Source: Bacillota bacterium (lineage in GTDB: Bacteria > Bacillota > Clostridia > Christensenellales > SZUA-584). Taken from it: a DNA stretch of 64,000 nt. The stretch is from NCBI GenBank assembly GCA_023428025.1, contig JAEYZN010000031.1, forward strand, positions 8,948-72,947, written 5' to 3'. Positions 2,101 through 50,667 of this stretch are shown one piece after another; position 1 is the first letter of the stretch; every line of letters starts with the position of its first letter. The notes below the pieces were generated by a model that had not been told where the DNA came from, did not search any database, and was given only the letters and a program-made list of their open reading frames with translations. Position numbers and translations under genes: made by a program.

Positions 2101-3132
2101 CTATTGCTCGGGCTCCAGCCTTTTCACGGAATCGCGGATGATCAGCTCGGTGGCCACTTCGATATTGAGATGATAGCTGTCGGCTTTTTCTATCTTGTCG
2201 ATCAGGCGGGACGCGGCGATGGCGCCGAAATAATGCTTGATCTGGATGGTGGTGATGGGGGGATCAAGCTCGGACATGAGCGCAATATCGTCGAAACCCA
2301 CGAGGGAGAAGTCGTTGGGGACCGAGAGGCCTTTTTTCTTGATGGCTCTTAAAGCGCCGGCCACGTTGTAGTCCAGATCCGTCAGGAAAACGGTCGGCAG
2401 GCTGTCGGCCGGGGTCTCGAGTATCTTCAGGAAATCGGCGCACGCGCCGTCGATCGTGCAGGTGACGTTGAACACATAGCCGGGGTTGTATTCGAGGTTT
2501 TTAAACTGCAGCCCCTCGAGATATCCGAAATAACGGTCGTCGAAGTTGTTGATGCGTGTTTTGCTTTTCAGAAATCCGATGCGGCGGTGGCCCAGGCTGT
2601 AAACATAATCGACGGCATTGGAGACGGCGTTCCGGTTGGCCAGGGTGACCATGTCGTAATTCTCGACAGGAAATCGGGCGTCGAAGATGACGATAGGCTT
2701 ATCAAGGGAATCGTATATGCCGAGCTCGCTTTCGGGAAGCTCGGTGGCATACAAAATGACACCGGCAACCTTGTCCCGCGAGAGGGATTCCAGAAGCAGT
2801 TCCTTGCTCATGCCGGAATTATAGTATGTGATCTCCAACTGATAGTTGTTGAGCACGGCGACGGACTGGATATCGTCAATGACATCCTGAAAGAAAATGG
2901 TGGGGATAAACAGCTGCTTCTGGGCCTTGTGGACGACAAGAACGATGACGCCCTTGACATTGGCGGGGTTGTCGTCCGTGCTGAACTTGCCGCTGGCGTA
3001 ATACTCCTCCAGTATCGCGAACACCTTGTTTTTGGTTTCCGCGCTGACGCCGGGTTTGTTATTGATGGCGAGAGAGACGGTGGAGGGCGAGATATTGAGC
3101 ATTTTTGCAATGTCTTTTGATTTTAAAAGCAA
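2101..3132 (-). CDS. LacI/GalR-family transcriptional regulator
   Basis: 343 aa. N-terminal HTH KDIAKMLNISPSTVSLAINNKPGVSAETKNKV plus a periplasmic-binding-like C-domain. TTG start at 3132 preceded by GGAGGA. Confidence 0.85.
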   Translation of the reverse strand: MLLKSKDIAKMLNISPSTVSLAINNKPGVSAETKNKVFAILEEYYASGKFSTDDNPANVKGVIVLVVHKAQKQLFIPTIFFQDVIDDIQSVAVLNNYQLEITYYNSGMSKELLLESLSRDKVAGVILYATELPESELGIYDSLDKPIVIFDARFPVENYDMVTLANRNAVSNAVDYVYSLGHRRIGFLKSKTRINNFDDRYFGYLEGLQFKNLEYNPGYVFNVTCTIDGACADFLKILETPADSLPTVFLTDLDYNVAGALRAIKKKGLSVPNDFSLVGFDDIALMSELDPPITTIQIKHYFGAIAASRLIDKIEKADSYHLNIEVATELIIRDSVKRLEPEQ

Positions 3133-3418
3133 CTTTTCCTCCGCATTTATACTTCAGGCCAATGGCAGCCCAAGCATCTAAATTAATTTTTATTGAATCA
3201 GAGGCATGTCCGGCTGATCCGTCAGCTTGCCGTCTGGAAAGGGTCGGGTGAAAATTTAAAACATGCCCAGAATTCAATAATATTATTTAATTAGTGGCAT
3301 GTCAATATCGAGAAGACATGGAACGGCAGGCTTCGGGTTTGCCCGGTGGCACATGCCCCGCAAAAACGGCAGGGCATGTGCGGGCAAGTTGGAGATGGCG
3401 GCGCCGGAGGAAACGGGA

Positions 3419-4441
3419 TCACTGGATTTTCAACATGACCTTGAGGCACTCGCCGGGATGGGCAATCGTCCATTCGACGGCCTGCTGCACATCGTCCAGA
3501 TCGAACACCTTGCCGCGCATGACCGCAAGATTCAGGGATTTATCATCAATAAGCTTGGCGGCTTCCGCAAAGTCCGTCGGCGTATACTGGTATGCGCCGA
3601 ATATGCGGAGTTCACGGTCTTCGACCCGGAACATATCCGTGGCGGGGCGTTTGGTGAACACGGCCAGCAGTACGACAACGCCACGGGTCTCGGTAAATTC
3701 GATGCAGTTGGCCAGGCTGTTTTCGTGGCCGGCGCATTCAAACGAGACTTCAACCTTATCGGCACCGGTATGCGCGCGGATAATGGCTTTGAAATCGTCT
3801 TTGGCCGGGTTGATCGGTATCATGCCCAGCTTTTCCACCACCTCCAGGCGGTTTTCCATAAGATCGGTCACGAACACCTGGGCGGCGCCCAGGTGCCTGG
3901 CATATTGCGCAGTGAGCAGGCCGATGGTGCCTGCGCCGGTGACCAGAACCGTTTTGCCGGCGATGCCCTCGGGCGCCAGTTTAACGCCGTGCACGGCGAC
4001 CGCCAGCGGCTCCGCCATGGCGGCGTCCATCAGATCGTCGTTGTTTTTGAATGTGATCACATTGCCGGCGGCGGCCACATAATATTGTGCGGTTCCACCA
4101 TCGTAGAAGCGCTCCTCCGGACAAAGAGCCAGATTTCCCTTCTTATCCAGACACCATTTGCATTTCCCGCAGCTCCTTACGGGCTGGATCGTGGCGGGGA
4201 CGCCAAGCTCAAAGCCTTCTACGCCGTCGCCGATTTCATCTACGTAACCGGAAAATTCATGCCCCAATACGATGGGAAAGGCATCTTTGAGAGTGGGGTG
4301 CTGGTTTTCAAAAATGTGCAGATCGGACCCGCAGAGGCCGTTATATATGACTTTGATGCGGACCTCGCCGGAGCCGGCGTGCGGCTCTGCCACATTTTCG
4401 ATTCTGTACTGGCGCGTACCTATCAATGTTGCTCTTTTCAA
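3419..4441 (-). CDS. Zn-dependent medium-chain alcohol/polyol dehydrogenase (sorbitol/threonine-DH-like)
   Basis: 340 aa. Motifs GLCGSDLH, GHEFSG, structural-Zn cluster CGKCKWC and Rossmann GAGTIG. TTG start preceded by GGAGG. Confidence 0.85.
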   Translation of the reverse strand: MKRATLIGTRQYRIENVAEPHAGSGEVRIKVIYNGLCGSDLHIFENQHPTLKDAFPIVLGHEFSGYVDEIGDGVEGFELGVPATIQPVRSCGKCKWCLDKKGNLALCPEERFYDGGTAQYYVAAAGNVITFKNNDDLMDAAMAEPLAVAVHGVKLAPEGIAGKTVLVTGAGTIGLLTAQYARHLGAAQVFVTDLMENRLEVVEKLGMIPINPAKDDFKAIIRAHTGADKVEVSFECAGHENSLANCIEFTETRGVVVLLAVFTKRPATDMFRVEDRELRIFGAYQYTPTDFAEAAKLIDDKSLNLAVMRGKVFDLDDVQQAVEWTIAHPGECLKVMLKIQ

Positions 4442-36264: not shown

Positions 36265-36354
36265 TGGCGGAGAGAGTGGGATTCGAACCCACGGTTGCTT
36301 GCGCAACACCGGTTTTCAAGACCGGCACTTTAAACCAGACTCAGACATCTCTCC
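36265..36354 (-). tRNA. tRNA-Ser (anticodon UGA), class II with long variable arm, CCA encoded
   Basis: Hand fold: GGAGAGA/TCTCTCC acceptor, CCGGT-CTTGAAA-ACCGG anticodon arm, GTTGC-GCAA-GCAAC variable arm, GTGGG-TTCGAAT-CCCAC T arm, then GCCA. Caveat: the D stem has only 2 Watson-Crick pairs in my fold (T10/T25 mismatch). Confidence 0.85.
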
Positions 36355-36567: not shown

Positions 36568-37818
36568 ATGAGCAGGCTGGATACGGCGCAGGCCCTTGTG
36601 CACACTTTCGGCAATGCCGTGGGCATTCACTGCTTTGCCGTGGACATGTCGGGCAAGGGAAGCGCGAACAACGGCCTGTTCTGCCAAATCTGCTGTCAGA
36701 AACAGATTGACGAAAACGGACGGGCGGCCTGCGAAAGCCTGATGGAATACGCCATCTACCAGTCGGAACGGTGGGGCGGCAAATATGAGTTTTTGTGCCC
36801 TGCCGGGGCGGCCTTCATCGCGGCCCCGGGGTTAAGGCACGGCATGCTGGAATACGGGCTCATCGCCGGACCGTTCCTGATGGTGGAGCCGCACGACTTT
36901 CTGGAAGAAGGGTTCCCCGGGCTGTTTGCCGGCAGCACGCGCGACATCGCCGTGGCGGCCAAAACGCTGCCGTATATTGAACCCCGGCGCGTGTCGTCGC
37001 TGGCGGATATGCTGTTTATGATCACGGCCTATACCGAACAGCGGGACAGCGAAGACCTGAGGCTGCTGGAGCAGACCAGCGCCCGATATAATGAGATATT
37101 TTCAACCATACAGGATATAAAGACGGGCGCGCGTACGCAGGAATACCCGCTGGAGACGGAGAAGAGGCTGCAGCGGTATATCGCCGCGGGTGACAAGGCC
37201 GGTGCGCAGCGGGCGCTGAATGAGATTCTGGGCGCGATTTTCTTTGCGGCCGGGGCGGATTTCGCGGTGATCAAGATGCGCGTGACGGAGCTGCTGGTGC
37301 TGCTGTCGCGGGCGGCGATAGACGGCGGCGCGGAGCCGGGGCGGATATTCGGCCTCTCGCGGGACTTTCTGACGGAGATTACCGGGTTTCACACGCTGGA
37401 CGACCTCAGCATCTGGCTTTCCGGCATCCTGTCCAGCTTCACCGGGCTGGTGTTTGCCGTTCCGGAGACCAAGCACACAGACACGATACAAAAAGTGATG
37501 GAATATGTGAACGCGAACTATATGAAGCGCATGAGCCTCAATGACATATCCGAGCATGTGTCGTTCAGCGTGTCGTATTTGAGCCGCATATTTAAGGAAG
37601 AAAAGGGGATGAGCCTCTCGTCGTACATCAACGAGGTGCGCATCCGCAACGCCAAGTCCATGCTGCTGGGAAGTGACATCCCGCTCTCGTCGCTGGCATA
37701 CTGCTGCGGGTTTGACGACCAGAGCTATTTTTCCAAGGTGTTCAAGAAACTCACCGGCACGACGCCGGGCAAATACCGCGAAAAGCGGGGGATCATCAAT
37801 AAAAAGACGGAGGAATAG
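36568..37818 (+). CDS. AraC-family transcriptional regulator with N-terminal PocR-type sensory domain
   Basis: 416 aa. The N-terminal Cys-containing PocR-like region is FCQICCQ...CESLMEYAIYQSERWGGKYEFLCPAGAAFIAAP. The C-terminal AraC HTH is LNDISEHVSFSVSYLSRIFK...SSLAYCCGFDDQSYFSKVFKKLTGTTPGKYR. Confidence 0.8.
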   Translation: MSRLDTAQALVHTFGNAVGIHCFAVDMSGKGSANNGLFCQICCQKQIDENGRAACESLMEYAIYQSERWGGKYEFLCPAGAAFIAAPGLRHGMLEYGLIAGPFLMVEPHDFLEEGFPGLFAGSTRDIAVAAKTLPYIEPRRVSSLADMLFMITAYTEQRDSEDLRLLEQTSARYNEIFSTIQDIKTGARTQEYPLETEKRLQRYIAAGDKAGAQRALNEILGAIFFAAGADFAVIKMRVTELLVLLSRAAIDGGAEPGRIFGLSRDFLTEITGFHTLDDLSIWLSGILSSFTGLVFAVPETKHTDTIQKVMEYVNANYMKRMSLNDISEHVSFSVSYLSRIFKEEKGMSLSSYINEVRIRNAKSMLLGSDIPLSSLAYCCGFDDQSYFSKVFKKLTGTTPGKYREKRGIINKKTEE

Positions 37819-37821
37819 AGC

Positions 37822-38457
37822 ATGAGCATATTTGAAGAAATGAGCTCCTTTCTGCAGCAGGGCCGGGCGCCCAAGGTTAAGGAGCTGGTGACTCAGGCGC
37901 TGGCCGACGGCGAGGACGCAAAAAAGATATTGGAAGAAGGCCTGCTCTCCGGTATGGCGATCATCGGCGGAAAGTTCAAAAACAACGAGGTGTATGTGCC
38001 TGAGGTGCTGATTGCCGCCCGGGCGATGAACGCGGGCATGGAGATTTTGAAGCCGTCGCTGGCCAGCAACGATGTGAAGGCCGTGGGCAAGGCGATCTTA
38101 GGGACGGTGAAGGGCGACCTGCACGACATCGGCAAGAACCTCGTCAAGATCATGCTGGAGGGCAAGGGCATTGAGGTGATCGACCTGGGCACCGACGTGG
38201 CGCCCGAGACGTTCATCCAGGCGGCGATCGACAATGACGCGAAGGTCGTGGCGTGCTCGGCGCTGCTGACGACGACGATGGGCGTGATGAAGGACGTGGT
38301 GGACAAAGCCAAGGAGATGGGCGTGCGCGACAAGCTGTCCATCATGGTGGGCGGCGCGCCGGTCACCGAGAACTACAAGGATTCCATCGGCGCGGACTAT
38401 TACGCGTCGGACGCGGCTTCCGCGTCGGACGTGGCGTATCAGATACTGAGCGCATAA
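37822..38457 (+). CDS. stand-alone corrinoid (B12)-binding protein, methyltransferase-cognate type
   Basis: 211 aa. N-terminal helical cap plus a Rossmann B12-binding domain with DxHxxG (GDLHDIGKN), SALLTTTM and MVGGAP blocks. Starts 3 nt after the regulator stop. Confidence 0.8.
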   Translation: MSIFEEMSSFLQQGRAPKVKELVTQALADGEDAKKILEEGLLSGMAIIGGKFKNNEVYVPEVLIAARAMNAGMEILKPSLASNDVKAVGKAILGTVKGDLHDIGKNLVKIMLEGKGIEVIDLGTDVAPETFIQAAIDNDAKVVACSALLTTTMGVMKDVVDKAKEMGVRDKLSIMVGGAPVTENYKDSIGADYYASDAASASDVAYQILSA

Positions 38458-46467: not shown

Positions 46468-46490
46468 GCGGGAGGCCACCGGCCCCCCGC
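46468..46490 (-). terminator. candidate intrinsic terminator (minus strand) for the serpin operon
   Basis: The minus strand reads gcggggggcc-ggt-ggcctcccgc followed by ttttattatt. Confidence 0.45.
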
Positions 46491-46507: not shown

Positions 46508-46543
46508 GTGCCTTGGGCCAACCCGAGGCACATTTTTATTTTT
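46508..46543 (+). terminator. candidate intrinsic terminator (plus strand) for the ACT gene
   Basis: gtgccttggg-ccaa-cccgaggcac (one G-U pair) followed by atttttattttt. The U-tract overlaps the serpin-1 stop region. Confidence 0.5.
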
Positions 46544-47759
46544 GCGACGGGTCGTTCACCGCGCCCAAAAAGGCGATCGCGCCGTCTTCCAGGGAATAGA
46601 TGGCGAACAGGAACGGCCGGTCCGCGTAGAATGTGGCCGGCGGTTCCACCAGCGCGCTGGTCGCCTCCATCTCCACCACGGTGACGGCGGCGGCTTCCGC
46701 GCCCAGCTCGTCGACGCGGATATAGCACTTGTGCAGCACGGCGGAGATAAACAGCTGTTCCTGATCCGTCATGCCGGAGAAATCCGCCTCGCCGGGCGCG
46801 AACGCCTTCTGCATGCCCATGGCTTTGAGCGTATCGGCCAGCGGCGCAAAGAAGGAGAACTCGAACTTGGGCAGGCGGATGGATACCGGCTGCTCGGCCA
46901 TGCCAGCCAGCGCGTCGCTGAAAAGACCGCCGTTCATGGAGGCGAGCAGATCGGGGATGCCCGTGCCCTCCGCGGGAAGGATGAAGGCCATGGCATAATG
47001 CCCCTCGTCCGCCTGGCTCTTGAAGCGCAATGAGATCATGGAGAATTGGTCGTCCGAATAGTACGGCACCGACCAGTCGCTGTGCATGAACGGGACGGTG
47101 ACGCTGCCGCCCGGCGCGGCGAATTCGCGGTCCGAGGTGTCGTTCGCTTCGAAGGGCAACTCCCATTCGCCGAGGTAGTACAGCGCGTTAGCGAGTATCA
47201 GGCGCGTCAGCGGGTCCGGCTCTTCCGAAAGTATTTTATCGATCCGGCCATGGGTTTTGTTTTTGGCCCATGCGTTGACGGCGTCCATCGCACCGGGAAT
47301 GGCGAGCGGCCTGGCGTCCGCCATGTATTCTTCCGTAACGGTCTTGATGTAATCGTCTTTATATTCGTAGTCGTCCAGCAGCCACACGGCGTTGGCGGCC
47401 TCCATGCCGCCGGTGTTGGCGCGCCACATCAGTTGGCGGCACGCGTCGGTGATCTGCTCATCCGTCAGATCGTCAAGGCCCAGCGCGGCGGCCATCTCGG
47501 CGGCGGTATCGCCTTTGGCGCCCGCGCGCGCCATACACAGCGCCAGCTCGATGCTGACGGGCGACAGCGCGAGGTTGGCATCGGTCTTATACAGATGTGA
47601 CGCCGTTGAAAAACCGAAGCTGTTGACACCGGACACGAAACGGCTGTCCAGCGGCTCGATGGTTTGTTTCACCAGCTTGCCGTCGTAACCCGCGGCGGCG
47701 CTGGCGCAGGCGCTTAAAAGCAGAGCGGCGGACAATATGAGAAGCAGTATTTTCTTCAT
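46536..47759 (-). CDS. serpin-family lipoprotein, paralogue 1
   Basis: Lipobox LLLSAC/ASA. Serpin blocks NAVNAW...THG.I, NALYY.GEW..PF, hinge ELGAEAAAVT and FYADRPFLF. ATG 47759 is preceded by GGAGGT; the ORF-track start 47774 lies inside the SD. Confidence 0.9.
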   Translation of the reverse strand: MKKILLLILSAALLLSACASAAAGYDGKLVKQTIEPLDSRFVSGVNSFGFSTASHLYKTDANLALSPVSIELALCMARAGAKGDTAAEMAAALGLDDLTDEQITDACRQLMWRANTGGMEAANAVWLLDDYEYKDDYIKTVTEEYMADARPLAIPGAMDAVNAWAKNKTHGRIDKILSEEPDPLTRLILANALYYLGEWELPFEANDTSDREFAAPGGSVTVPFMHSDWSVPYYSDDQFSMISLRFKSQADEGHYAMAFILPAEGTGIPDLLASMNGGLFSDALAGMAEQPVSIRLPKFEFSFFAPLADTLKAMGMQKAFAPGEADFSGMTDQEQLFISAVLHKCYIRVDELGAEAAAVTVVEMEATSALVEPPATFYADRPFLFAIYSLEDGAIAFLGAVNDPSQK

Positions 47760-47779
47760 GGGGTATACCTCCATAGCAT

Positions 47780-49003
47780 TTAGTTTATTGACGGATTGTT
47801 GACCGCGCCCAAAAAGGCGATCGCGCCGTCCTCCAGGGAGTAGATGACGAACAGGAACGGACGGTCCGCAAAGAATTTGGCGGGTTCCTCCGTTGGGGCC
47901 CCGGCGGCGGGCGCCTCCACCACGGTGACGGCGGCGGCTTCCGCACCCAGCTCATCGATACGCACATAGCACTTGTGCAATACGCTGGATATGAACAGCT
48001 GCTCCTGATCCGTCATGCCGGAGAAGTCCGCTTCACCCAGCGTGAACGCCTTCTGCATGCCCATGGCTTTCAGCGTATCGGCCAGCGGCACGAAGAAGGA
48101 GAACTCGAACTTGGGCAGGCGAATCCACACCTCCTGCTCGGCCATGCCAGCCAGCGCGTCGCTGAAAAGGCCGCCGTTCATGGAGGCGAGCAGGTCGGGG
48201 AGACGGACGCCCTCGGCGGGGAGGATGAAGGCCATGGCGTAATGCCCCTCGTCCGCCTGGCTCTTGAAGCGCAGCGAGATCATGGAGAACTGATCGTCCG
48301 AATAGTAGGGTACGGACCAGTCGCTGTGCATGAAGGGGACGGTGACGCTGCCGTCCGGCGCGGCGAACTCGCGGTCCGCGGTGTTGTTGGCTTCGAAGGG
48401 CTTTTCCCACTCTCCGAGGTAATATAACGCATTGGTAAGTATCAGCCGCGTCAGAGGATCAGCCTCCTGCTGCATGATCTGATCGATCCGGCCGTGGGTT
48501 TTGTCTTTCGCCCATGCGTTGACGGCGTTCATCGCGCCGGGGATGGCAAGCGGCCTGGCGTCCGCCATATACTCTTCCGTGATCGTCCTGATGTAATCGT
48601 CGTTGTACTGATAGTCGTCCAGCAGCCAGACGGCGTTGGCGGCCTCCATGCCGCCGGTGTTGGCGCGCCACATCAGCTGGCGGCACGCGTCCGTGATCTG
48701 CTCATCCGACAAATCCACAAGACCCAGCGCGGCGGCCATCTCGGCGGCGGTATCGCCCTTGGCGCCCGCGCGCGCCATGCACAGCGCCAGCTCGATGCTG
48801 ACGGGCGACAGCGCGATATTTGTATCCGTTTTATATAGCTTTGACGCGGCGGCAAAGCCGAAGCTGTTGGCGCCGGAGACGAAACGGCTGTCCAGCGGCT
48901 CGATGGTCTGCTTCACCAGCTTGCCGTCGTAGCCCGCGGCGGCGCTGGCGCATGCGCCGAGCAGCAGAACCACAGACAGTGTAAGCAGCAGCAGTTTCTT
49001 CAA
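47780..49003 (-). CDS. serpin-family lipoprotein, paralogue 2
   Basis: Lipobox LLLGAC/ASA with the same scaffold blocks. Probable TTG start at 49003, 7 nt after GGAGGA. Confidence 0.9.
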   Translation of the reverse strand: MKKLLLLTLSVVLLLGACASAAAGYDGKLVKQTIEPLDSRFVSGANSFGFAAASKLYKTDTNIALSPVSIELALCMARAGAKGDTAAEMAAALGLVDLSDEQITDACRQLMWRANTGGMEAANAVWLLDDYQYNDDYIRTITEEYMADARPLAIPGAMNAVNAWAKDKTHGRIDQIMQQEADPLTRLILTNALYYLGEWEKPFEANNTADREFAAPDGSVTVPFMHSDWSVPYYSDDQFSMISLRFKSQADEGHYAMAFILPAEGVRLPDLLASMNGGLFSDALAGMAEQEVWIRLPKFEFSFFVPLADTLKAMGMQKAFTLGEADFSGMTDQEQLFISSVLHKCYVRIDELGAEAAAVTVVEAPAAGAPTEEPAKFFADRPFLFVIYSLEDGAIAFLGAVNNPSIN

Positions 49004-49022
49004 ATCAGTTTCCTCCAATCGT

Positions 49023-50306
49023 TCATTTGGCCGACGGGTTGTTGACAGCGCCCAGGAAGGCGATCGCGCCGTCCTCCAGAGAGTAGATGGCGAACAGGAA
49101 GGGGCGGTCCGCGTAGAATGTTGGCGGCTGCTCTATCAGTGCGCCTCTGAGTGTCATTTCGACCACCGTGGCTGCGGCGGCTTCCGCACCCAACTCATCG
49201 ATACGCACATAGCACTTGTGCAGCACGCTGGAAATGTATAATGACTCCTGGTCCGTCATGCCGGAGAAATCCGCCTCATCGGGGGTGAACGCTTTCTGCA
49301 TGCCCATGGCTTTGAGCGTGTCGGCCAGCGGCGCAAAGAAGGAAAACTCGAACTTGGGCAGGCGTATCCACACCTCCTGCTCGGACATGGAGGCCAGCGC
49401 ATCACGGAAACGGCTGCCGTTCATGGAGGCGAGCAGATCGGGGATGGCGGCGCCCTTCGCGGGGAGGATGAAGGCCATGGCGTAATGCCCCTCGTCCGCG
49501 TTGCTCTTGAAGCGCAATGAGATCATGGAGAACCGGCCGTCCGAGTAGTAGGGCACCGTCCAGCTGCTGTGCATGAAGGGAACGGTGACGCTGCCGCCCG
49601 GCGCGGCGAATTCGCGGTCCGCAGTGTTGTTGGCGTTGAACGGCAATTCCCATTCGCCAAGATAGTACAGCGCGTTGGTGAGTATCAGACGCGTCAGCGG
49701 ATCGGGCTCCTGCTGCATGATCTTGTCGATTCGGCCGTGGGTTTTGTCATTGGCCCATGCGTTGACGGCGTCCATCGCGCCGGGGATGGCAAACGGCATG
49801 AGGTCTGCCATATACTCTTCCGTAATTGTCCTGATGTAATCGTCGTTGTACTGGTAATCGTCCAGCAGCCAGGCGGCGTTGGCGGCCTCCATGCCGCCGG
49901 TGTTGGCGCGCCACATCAGCTGGCGGCACGCGTCCGCGATCTGCTCATCCGTCAGATGACCAAGGCCCAGCACGGCGGCCATCTCGGCGGCGGTATCGCC
50001 CTTGGCGCCCGCGCGCGCCATGCACAGCGCCAGCTCGATGCTGACGGGAGAGAGCGCGAGGTTGGCGTCGGCGGCATAGAGCTTGGACGCGGCGGCAAAA
50101 CCGAAGCTGTTGGCGCCGTTGACGAAGCTGCCGTCCAGCGGCGTTATGGGCTGGGGTTGGAGCCGGGTACGGTAGCTCACGGGCTGCATGGATGTCGCCG
50201 GTGAATGGGAAACGGCGGAAGCCGTGGGCCCGGAGGCCTCCGGCGAGGCGCAGCCGGTGAACAAGAGCAATGCGGCCAGCGCGAGCATAATACACTTTTT
50301 CAGCAC
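49023..50306 (-). CDS. serpin-family lipoprotein, paralogue 3 (extra Pro/Ser-rich N-terminal linker)
   Basis: Lipobox LLFTGC/ASP. Linker SPEASGPTASAVSHSPATSMQPVSYRTRLQPQPITPL, followed by the same scaffold. GTG start 50306, 9 nt after GGAGGAG. Confidence 0.9.
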   Translation of the reverse strand: MLKKCIMLALAALLLFTGCASPEASGPTASAVSHSPATSMQPVSYRTRLQPQPITPLDGSFVNGANSFGFAAASKLYAADANLALSPVSIELALCMARAGAKGDTAAEMAAVLGLGHLTDEQIADACRQLMWRANTGGMEAANAAWLLDDYQYNDDYIRTITEEYMADLMPFAIPGAMDAVNAWANDKTHGRIDKIMQQEPDPLTRLILTNALYYLGEWELPFNANNTADREFAAPGGSVTVPFMHSSWTVPYYSDGRFSMISLRFKSNADEGHYAMAFILPAKGAAIPDLLASMNGSRFRDALASMSEQEVWIRLPKFEFSFFAPLADTLKAMGMQKAFTPDEADFSGMTDQESLYISSVLHKCYVRIDELGAEAAAATVVEMTLRGALIEQPPTFYADRPFLFAIYSLEDGAIAFLGAVNNPSAK

Positions 50307-50667
50307 GAGGGATCACTCCTCCACTTAAGTAAACGCTGATTAATTCGAAAAACTGTCTTGGCGGCTATTTCCGCGCCCTGCTGTGTCGCTAATCTTGAAA
50401 TAGCGCTGCGATGAGTGCGATTTTGCTCCTTGCAGGACCCAAAACTATCTCGCCAATCCATCATTCCTCATTTATTCAGTGTTTACTTATGGTTAACAAA
50501 AATATGACGCATCGTTTAAGCCCAAGGTTCCAAATATGATGGAAAAACGGCAATTGATGGATTATAATCTTTACCAATGGAACAAATATATTGGCAAACG
50601 GGTCATATTGAGCAGCGTACGCGCATATAAATGCAGGTGAATTCTTTTTTGCGAGGTGTCGTATTTG

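Follow-up and report, generated by a model that had tools for sequence, protein, structure and literature searches.

A hypervariable reactive centre is a known feature of the mammalian SERPINA1 and SERPINA3 clusters (Hill and Hastie 1987, Ohta 1994 and Barbour 2002, cited through PMC3966226 and PMC12646145), and the two citing papers report different protease targets, inferred or shown, for mammalian and insect serpin paralogues. Here we describe three bacterial serpin genes, designated S3, S2 and S1 in the order in which they would be transcribed, that lie in a 64,000-nucleotide stretch (the window) of contig JAEYZN010000031.1 from the Bacillota assembly GCA_023428025.1. As in the SERPINA clusters and in insect serpin-1, with its alternative exon 9, a conserved scaffold is combined with a reactive-centre loop (RCL) that is a divergence hotspot; as in the SERPINA clusters, the paralogues are in tandem, and the non-allelic recombination or conversion between paralogues that characterises SERPINA-type evolution is indicated here also. 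Unlike those clusters, the locus appears to be a bacterial operon of predicted lipoprotein genes, present in one to three copies, and its loop types look old and stable between orthologues rather than rapidly turned over, with no ratio of nonsynonymous to synonymous divergence (dN/dS, omega) above 1 seen. The reading that we hold with moderate confidence is that one operon encodes three paralogous surface serpins with different baits against different proteases, the scaffolds having been homogenised and the loops maintained.

Two serpin paralogues have been described in one gut Firmicute, the Clostridia member Eubacterium siraeum. These, siropin 1 and siropin 2, are 63% identical overall and 48% identical in the RCL, and inhibit the host neutrophil elastase and PR3, with cuts at P3-P2 and at P6-P5 Val-Glu; it is at the P6-P5 Val-Glu bond that siropin 2 is cleaved by elastase and PR3, and siropin 1 is predicted to be intracellular (PMC5127057). 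The siropin hinges consist of small residues and are of the inhibitory type. S1 to S3 are closer to one another (80-86% identical), and a tandem layout, lipoprotein anchoring and concerted evolution are not described for the siropins. Chloropin, from the free-living green sulfur bacterium Chlorobium limicola (PDB 8gxv), is a single protein, modulated by heparin and DNA, that inhibits thrombin and KLK7 and for which the P1 residue, Arg383, was mapped by mass spectrometry (PMC10090351). Its RCL is in register with that of S3, the only member of the triplet in which this Arg is present.

The cellulosomal serpins of Clostridia (C. thermocellum PinA, C. cellulolyticum Dpi and R. flavefaciens Doc-Serpin) are displayed at the cell surface and have been proposed to protect surface assemblies from proteolysis; they are anchored by a dockerin, in place of which S1 to S3 have a predicted lipobox. 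Miropin of Tannerella forsythia, a lipoprotein associated with the cell surface, inhibits numerous host proteases and derives its breadth from several reactive sites in one loop. It is, like S1 to S3, a bacterial serpin of a host-associated anaerobe, and its structures (PDB 5ncs and related entries) are matched in sequence with E values of ~1e-41 to 1e-34. A review calls miropin multispecific; its breadth lies within one protein, whereas in the present array three genes, each with its own loop, would provide it.

Loop-diversified tandem serpin clusters, moulded by selection and gene conversion, are known from mammals and insects, and two serpin paralogues from one gut Firmicute; what is new is the bacterial operon. 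The reviews and the superfamily phylogeny consulted, the coverage of which is incomplete and no proof of absence, contain no description of tandem lipoprotein serpin operons, of concerted evolution of bacterial serpins or of serpins from Christensenellaceae, and the locus, if read correctly, would be the first reported instance of bacterial serpins evolving in concert with partitioned loops. Little is understood of bacterial serpins, of which only a handful have been characterised, and those from the gut are being pursued as anti-inflammatories against host elastase and PR3. Three near-identical scaffolds with different baits are a ready-made natural experiment on how the loop sets specificity in bacterial serpins, and the triplet would show whether gut commensals field panels of inhibitors against several host proteases simultaneously. 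Homogenised scaffolds with loops maintained by lineage suggest that the rules of the mammalian and insect clusters apply to a prokaryotic operon; the concept of a serpin and of its mechanism is left unchanged.

Three serpin genes with divergent reactive-centre loops

S1, S2 and S3 are members of the serpin superfamily (Pfam PF00079, MEROPS I4). All three proteins match PF00079 at profile positions 3-370 of 370, with E values of 1e-86 to 1e-87 and scores of 290-295 bits against a cut-off of 27, and a Pfam profile scan detects no domain other than PF00079 and, in particular, no dockerin, the trait of cellulosomal serpins. With these full-length matches on the minus strand, and with S2 and S3 being 86% and 80% identical in protein sequence to S1, the tandem triplet of serpin genes with near-identical scaffolds that an initial annotation had proposed is confirmed. 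The best sequence match in the PDB is to chloropin (8gxv, E=8e-47). An AlphaFold2 model of S3 has the serpin fold (mean pLDDT, the predicted local distance difference test, 87.6; predicted TM-score, pTM, 0.83), and a Foldseek search of this model against the PDB returned matches of probability 1.00, with target-normalised TM-scores of 0.84-0.90 to tengpin, conserpin, antithrombin and CBG. In the variable part of the loop (residues 386-395) the pLDDT falls below 50, and confidence is also low at residues 20-35, in the linker; the model is consistent with an S3 bait loop that is exposed and flexible. Residues 373-383, the hinge, are modelled as a strand that has entered sheet A, and Foldseek ranks latent or loop-cleaved serpins highest (latent tengpin, latent conserpin, cleaved CBG and PAI-1).

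The hinge common to the three copies, ELGAEAAA[V/A]TVVE, agrees with the inhibitory consensus ExGTEAAAA at P17, P15, P13 and P12-P10, and in S3 also at P9, and contains neither Pro nor a charge at P14 or P12-P9. Over 2500 serpin homologues were found. In 120 homologues (51-99% identical) the E-x-G-A-E-A-A-A stretch is nearly invariant, and P17 Glu, P15 Gly, P13 Glu, P12-P10 Ala-Ala-Ala and P8 Thr are invariant. By sequence, the S1 to S3 hinge conforms to the inhibitory pattern with two conservative departures and inhibitory activity is thus predicted.

Beyond the shared hinge the three copies part company. Translation shows that the hinge, the loop sequences and their coordinates had been given exactly in the initial annotation, as had the sharing of only six of the 14 distal loop residues by S1 and S2. 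Variable columns make up 10 of the 14 in the loop versus 79 of the 370 in the mature protein (hypergeometric P=5.7e-5), and every 14-column window of the mature part that has 10 variable columns overlaps the distal RCL, so that the loops do, as claimed, diverge more than the sequence elsewhere. The N-terminal signal peptide and linker vary even more, but within the folded domain the distal RCL is the divergence hotspot. By the Nei-Gojobori method, the scaffolds have a dS of 0.44-0.48, a dN of 0.06-0.09 and an omega of 0.13-0.19, and the loops a dN of 0.42-0.61 and an omega of 0.17-0.43, the latter from a pairwise test of low power in which dS is saturated on the ~11 silent sites of 14 codons. 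Pairwise dN/dS was accordingly dropped as a proof of positive selection, with omega below 1 and the silent sites saturated. The same pattern of divergence extends to the family, as in the 120 homologues the D-E-L-G-A-E-A-A-A hinge and the F-x-A-D-R-P-F strand are nearly invariant and the stretch between them is the most variable of the folded domain, with a loop entropy of 2.34 bits versus a body mean of 1.2 bits and with loop length varying too.

The serpin genes are arranged head-to-tail on the minus strand, at 46536-50306, in open reading frames (ORFs) that span 46536-47774, 47780-49018 and 49023-50306. Translation of S1 and S2 probably begins 15 nt within their ORFs (ATG at 47759 and TTG at 49003), because a GGAGG site precedes each and because independent gene calls give identical 407-aa products: S1 is identical to the database protein P0003 (407 aa) and S2 to P0002 (407 aa), and a gene call at 3001-4224 of locus L007 corresponds to 49003-47780 of the window. 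For S3, other assemblies carry the same gene call. With intergenic spacers of 19 and 20 nt, the GGAGG sites and a terminator-like hairpin that begins 46 nt past the S1 stop codon, the layout indicates that S3-S2-S1 form one operon, which would be co-transcribed and have its end marked by the terminator. This operon runs against the direction of the gene sets on either side and of almost every other gene in the window, with patatin and symporter genes on one side and ACT, LOG and DUF2179 genes on the other, and the inverted orientation is shared by the window and the related loci L008, L009 and L012.

The three signal peptides, MKKILLLILSAALLLSAC, (M)KKLLLLTLSVVLLLGAC and (M)LKKCIMLALAALLLFTGC, have, by inspection, a basic n-region, a hydrophobic h-region and a lipobox that conforms to the pattern [LVIF]-x-[GAS]-C, and a lipobox is present in every homologue from the related loci with an intact 5′-end. 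S1 to S3 are therefore predicted lipoproteins, which would be lipidated and tethered to the membrane. In S3, a long, Ala/Pro/Ser-rich linker (residues 20-44; window 50175-50249) that is predicted to be disordered separates the lipidated Cys from the serpin domain. The first-position genes (L001, L002, L003, L009 and S3) have linkers of this Ala-, Pro- and Ser-rich, predicted-disordered kind, 20-30 residues longer and followed by a conserved V-[AS]-Y-R-x-x-L motif, and the second- and third-position genes carry the short linker C-A-S-A-A-A-G-Y-D-G-K-L. The length of the tether may set the inhibitors at different distances from the membrane.

Loop types and scaffolds in related genomes

A 7.2-kb part of the window recurs at 100% identity in a 245-kb metagenome contig of another assembly record, and a sister strain (L008) carries the same three serpin genes. 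An assembly artefact that duplicated one gene is ruled out, as this 7 kb recurs, identical or with eight differences, in independent assemblies. The related loci are from metagenome-assembled genomes (MAGs) labelled Bacillota or Christensenellaceae, and share a conserved neighbourhood in which a sodium:solute symporter (SSF) and a patatin gene are followed by the serpins, on the opposite strand, and by genes for an ACT-domain protein, a LOG-like protein and a DUF2179 protein. As the syntenic slot holds one, two or three serpins per genome, and two or three in most relatives, multiple copies are the rule at this locus in the clade. The statement in the initial annotation that bacterial serpins are rare and mostly single-copy is thus wrong for this clade, and sits poorly with the number of homologues found. 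Contigs L009 and L010 stop ~200 nt into a third serpin copy, that of L001 ends ~280 nt after its second copy, and L006, 3.8 kb long, consists of serpins only. Contigs of related MAGs thus often break inside the array and their serpin copy numbers are minimum values; near-identical scaffolds break short-read assemblies, so that copy numbers in MAG catalogues are underestimated. A strain comparison of L009 with L010 found them identical.

The strongest support for diversification of specificity comes from the contrast between orthologues and paralogues. The loops of the orthologues L002_2 and L009_2 are 92% identical and their bodies 85%, and first-position orthologues have loops that are 71-86% identical on bodies that are 79-83% identical. 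Between paralogues, by contrast, loop identity is only 21-50% and body identity 60-89%. Sequences grouped in one 90% cluster show just one or two changes in the loop. That loops are conserved like the body between orthologues and differ between paralogues argues for distinct specificities that are maintained, and against a freely drifting loop. In this respect the specificity diversification proposed at the outset (orthologue loops 71-92% identical versus 21-50% for paralogues) has gained support, but not in the form of positive selection, which was not shown.

The scaffolds have a different history. In a scaffold tree, S1 to S3 form one clade with 100% bootstrap support that is nested within the clade of second- and third-position genes; a clade apart from this, likewise supported at 100%, comprises the first-position genes from four other genomes. 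The N-terminal region of S3 is, however, 49% identical to L009_1 versus 19% to S2, whereas its body is 87% identical to S2 versus 61% to L009_1. S3 is a mosaic, with an N-terminus and loop of the first-position type on an S2-like body. Each loop in the window is closer to a loop from a foreign genome than to those of its own paralogues, which rank 3rd to 59th in comparison with 110 distinct foreign loops (shuffle P 0.003, 0.03 and <0.004). The S3 loop (MTLRGALIEQPPT) is nearest to MRDGGALIEQEPAN and MMAGGALIEDLPPQ of first-position genes, the S2 loop to APAAEPPSEPPPE, found in L002_3 and P0052, and the S1 loop to MEATSAPMEPLTT of P0058, a protein with a body only 66% identical.

A probable trace of exchange between S2 and S3 is visible at the nucleotide level. 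Over 6981 aligned bp, the sister strain differs from the window at eight positions, all within 36 bp of S3 (49937-49972), and at all eight its base is that of S2. Gene conversion, raised as a possibility in the initial annotation, is thus supported by the mosaic structure of S3 and by this 36-bp S2-like patch, evidence that comes from metagenome assemblies; a run-length test lent it little weight. The near-identity of the scaffolds is partly the result of recombination or gene conversion between paralogues and not of purifying selection only, and the simplest reading is of an older, differentiated array in which the bodies were homogenised by non-allelic recombination or conversion, with the 5′-end and the loops spared. 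A simple recent triplication with a fast-evolving loop was rejected as the whole story, as the N-terminus of S3 belongs to an older gene lineage than its body. In L012 (6001-8582), two serpins are each other's closest relatives (83% body identity, 100% bootstrap) and have loops that are 50% identical, so that scaffold homogenisation, or independent duplication, is not unique to the lineage of the window.

Predicted targets and alternative explanations

Given the inhibitory-type hinge, each protein most likely acts as a suicide-substrate inhibitor. Exported by its lipoprotein signal and tethered outside the cell membrane through a lipidated N-terminal Cys and a flexible linker, each serpin would offer its bait loop to a protease, and on cleavage the loop would snap into beta-sheet A and trap the protease covalently. 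With three different baits, the array would cover different extracellular serine proteases, and its likely role would be protection of the cell surface in a protease-rich gut habitat. Sequence and model directly show family membership, the fold, the tandem layout, the lipobox, the loop as a hotspot of divergence, the contrast between orthologues and paralogues and the mosaic make-up of S3; inhibitory activity, scissile bonds, target proteases, lipidation and co-transcription are inferred. In evolutionary terms, the locus would be an old syntenic one of one to three copies in which selection maintains loop types within orthologous lineages and, in the lineage of the window, non-allelic recombination or gene conversion has homogenised the scaffolds and spared the 5′-end and loops. 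That the clade as a whole, of uncultured, gut-type Bacillota, keeps a syntenic surface-serpin operon that evolves like the SERPINA cluster, with scaffolds repeatedly homogenised by conversion, loops and first-gene tether kept distinct by selection, and a small panel of inhibitors of different host or microbial proteases that includes a rare, trypsin-directed P1-Arg copy, is a more tentative proposal that we rate somewhat short of probable.

Counting from the hinge Gly as P15, as was done in the initial annotation, does give Thr, Ala and Arg as the P1 residues of S1, S2 and S3, with P4-P4′ sequences of MEAT/SALV, APAA/GAPT and MTLR/GALI (the slash marking the counted P1-P1′ bond). Small residues (Thr, Ala, Ser and Gly) dominate the counted P1 in the family. 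Arg or Lys is present at this position in only 6 of 135 family members, including S3 and its copy in the sister strain, and S3 is in this respect an unusual member. The S3 Arg aligns without gaps with the chloropin P1 Arg383 (VVEMTLR/G versus VVMQLR/S) and is the only one of the three counted P1 residues in register with an experimentally mapped P1. It is therefore reasonable to predict that S3 targets trypsin-like enzymes; the counted P1 residues of S1 and S2 appear much less secure, and these two serpins might act on enzymes that prefer small or aliphatic residues (elastase-, PR3- or subtilisin-like). By analogy, the siropins point to digestive or neutrophil proteases of the host as the favoured targets, and the cellulosomal serpins suggest bacterial subtilisins.

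A number of observations weigh against this reading of the locus. The counted P1 is Gly in 51 of the 135 family members, and the register is thus unreliable for this serpin family; Val(P6)-Glu(P5) is common to all three copies, so that elastase-type enzymes might treat them alike. Two hinge residues, P16 Leu (not E/K/R) and P14 Ala (not Thr), depart from ExGTEAAAA, and the S3 model, being of a relaxed, latent- or cleaved-like state, is uninformative on the native metastable state. Per-region dN/dS, a check proposed in the initial annotation, does not show positive selection on the RCL (loop omega 0.17-0.43). With loop omega below 1 and loop dN close to scaffold dS, the three serpin genes alone cannot tell selection from drift or older divergence, and in only one of their pairs is the loop significantly richer in nonsynonymous, as against synonymous, changes than the remainder of the gene (Fisher P=0.014, 0.13 and 0.064). 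As to conversion, the converted allele is present in one metagenome assembly and the unconverted allele in two, and since the flanks of the 36-bp patch are shared with S2 over 76 and 63 bp, a de Bruijn assembler could yield such a patch as a chimera. Applied to S1 to S3, a Sawyer-type run-length test gave weak results (P=0.002, 0.50 and 0.009), and its lowest value results from the foreign 5′-end of S3. A scan of the correct strand upstream of S3 found no sigma-70-like promoter, and no gene for a target protease was found among the scanned window ORFs or the syntenic neighbours of the genomes examined. The targets are presumably extracellular, as the locus has no linked protease gene.

The same inhibitory mechanism could serve self-protection or competition, with the producer's own or its neighbours' subtilisin-like or other secreted bacterial proteases as targets. 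Surface complexes are what cellulosomal serpins have been proposed to shield from subtilisin-like proteases, a lipobox would tether the proteins to the producer's own surface and the small counted P1 residues in the family suit subtilisin- or elastase-type enzymes. Nevertheless, with no locus-linked protease gene in any genome examined, no dockerin or other cellulosome module beside PF00079, host elastase and PR3 as the enzymes on which the characterised gut-bacterial serpins act, and a rare P1 Arg in S3 that fits trypsin-like host enzymes, we regard this as rather unlikely, if worth keeping in view. It is also unlikely that the copies are redundant, maintained for dosage or as broad-spectrum duplicates with loops that drift unconstrained, and inhibit, or are cut by, the same proteases at Val(P6)-Glu(P5) or through several sites as in miropin. 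Such redundancy would account for a loop dN (0.42-0.61) that is close to scaffold dS (0.44-0.48), for loop omega below 1 and for the frequency of Gly at the counted P1, and the dipeptide at which siropin 2 is cut by elastase and PR3 is indeed present in S1 to S3. Unconstrained drift is difficult to reconcile with orthologue loops conserved like the scaffold (92% for L002_2 and L009_2, 71-86% for first-position genes), with changes at just one or two loop positions inside one 90% cluster and with the recurrence of loop types in genomes in which the scaffolds have diverged to 64-72%.

Conservation of loop types between orthologues also argues against non-inhibitory serpins, in which the fold would be used for binding or as a chaperone and the loop would vary because it is not a bait. 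This we consider improbable in spite of the P16 and P14 departures and the loop-inserted S3 model, both of which would suit it, as the key hinge residues (P17, P15, P13, P12-P10 and P8) are invariant in the 120 homologues, the hinge is free of the Pro or charged substitutions that typify non-inhibitory serpins and the closest solved relatives, chloropin, tengpin and miropin, are inhibitors. There is very little likelihood that the loops result from programmed hypervariation, for example by a diversity-generating retroelement, or that the array is an assembly duplication of one gene. A short hypervariable stretch does lie within otherwise similar repeats, and related MAG contigs do often break inside the array, but no reverse transcriptase is annotated in the conserved neighbourhood of the related loci, no template repeat was found, only the three paralogues matching each other within the window, and the paralogues differ at 176-229 nt positions over the whole gene, with a dS of ~0.45. 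With differences so spread, a diversity-generating retroelement was rejected, and the recurrence of the same 7 kb in another assembly record and, with eight differences, in a second strain counts against an artefact.

Feature coordinates and other parts of the window

Coordinates of the features of the serpin array (window positions)
Feature	Position	Strand	Details
S3, operon gene 1	49023-50306	minus	GTG start; 427-aa serpin lipoprotein (predicted); ORF and PF00079 match, E 2.9e-86
S2, operon gene 2	47780-49003	minus	TTG start at 49003 (probable); 407-aa predicted serpin lipoprotein; ORF reaches 49018
S1, operon gene 3	46536-47759	minus	ATG start at 47759 (probable); 407-aa predicted serpin lipoprotein; ORF reaches 47774
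S3 lipoprotein signal peptide	50250-50306	minus	lipobox F-T-G-C, by inspection
S2 lipoprotein signal peptide	48950-49003	minus	lipobox L-G-A-C, by inspection
S1 lipoprotein signal peptide	47706-47759	minus	lipobox L-S-A-C, by inspection
S3 hinge P17-P5	49158-49196	minus	ELGAEAAAATVVE, translation checked
S2 hinge P17-P5	47915-47953	minus	translation checked
S1 hinge P17-P5	46671-46709	minus	translation checked
S3 variable distal RCL	49116-49157	minus	MTLRGALIEQPPTF, translation checked
S2 variable distal RCL	47873-47914	minus	APAAGAPTEEPAKF, translation checked
S1 variable distal RCL	46629-46670	minus	MEATSALVEPPATF, translation checked
S3 ribosome-binding site	50316-50322	minus	GGAGGAG
S2 ribosome-binding site	49010-49016	minus	GGAGGAA
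S1 ribosome-binding site	47766-47772	minus	GGAGGTA
Candidate conversion tract in S3	49874-50048	minus	maximal 175 bp identical; S2 donor 48631-48805
Terminator-like hairpin and T-run	46468-46490	minus	10-bp stem, 9 G-C pairs; tail TTTTATTATT

Elsewhere in the window, the region from 14000 to 36400 is a block of low G+C content (39-47% versus 55-64% on both sides) in which all genes are on the plus strand. Encoded here are a Cache/HAMP histidine kinase and an AraC-type response regulator, together with a rhamnose isomerase, an FGGY sugar kinase, proteins resembling arabinose/fucose isomerases, and an ABC sugar transporter plus its binding protein. The block ends beside a tRNA-Ser(TGA) gene on the minus strand (36265-36354). 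It looks like a horizontally acquired sugar-utilisation island. An Rfam scan of the window detected only a tRNA and no rRNA. Just past the tRNA-Ser gene, at 36568-38457, are genes for a PocR-sensor/AraC-type regulator and then for a small protein with two B12-binding domains. There is a second low-G+C stretch (38%) at positions 1-2000, where a 480-aa ORF on the plus strand (477-1919) has a full-length match to DUF6034.

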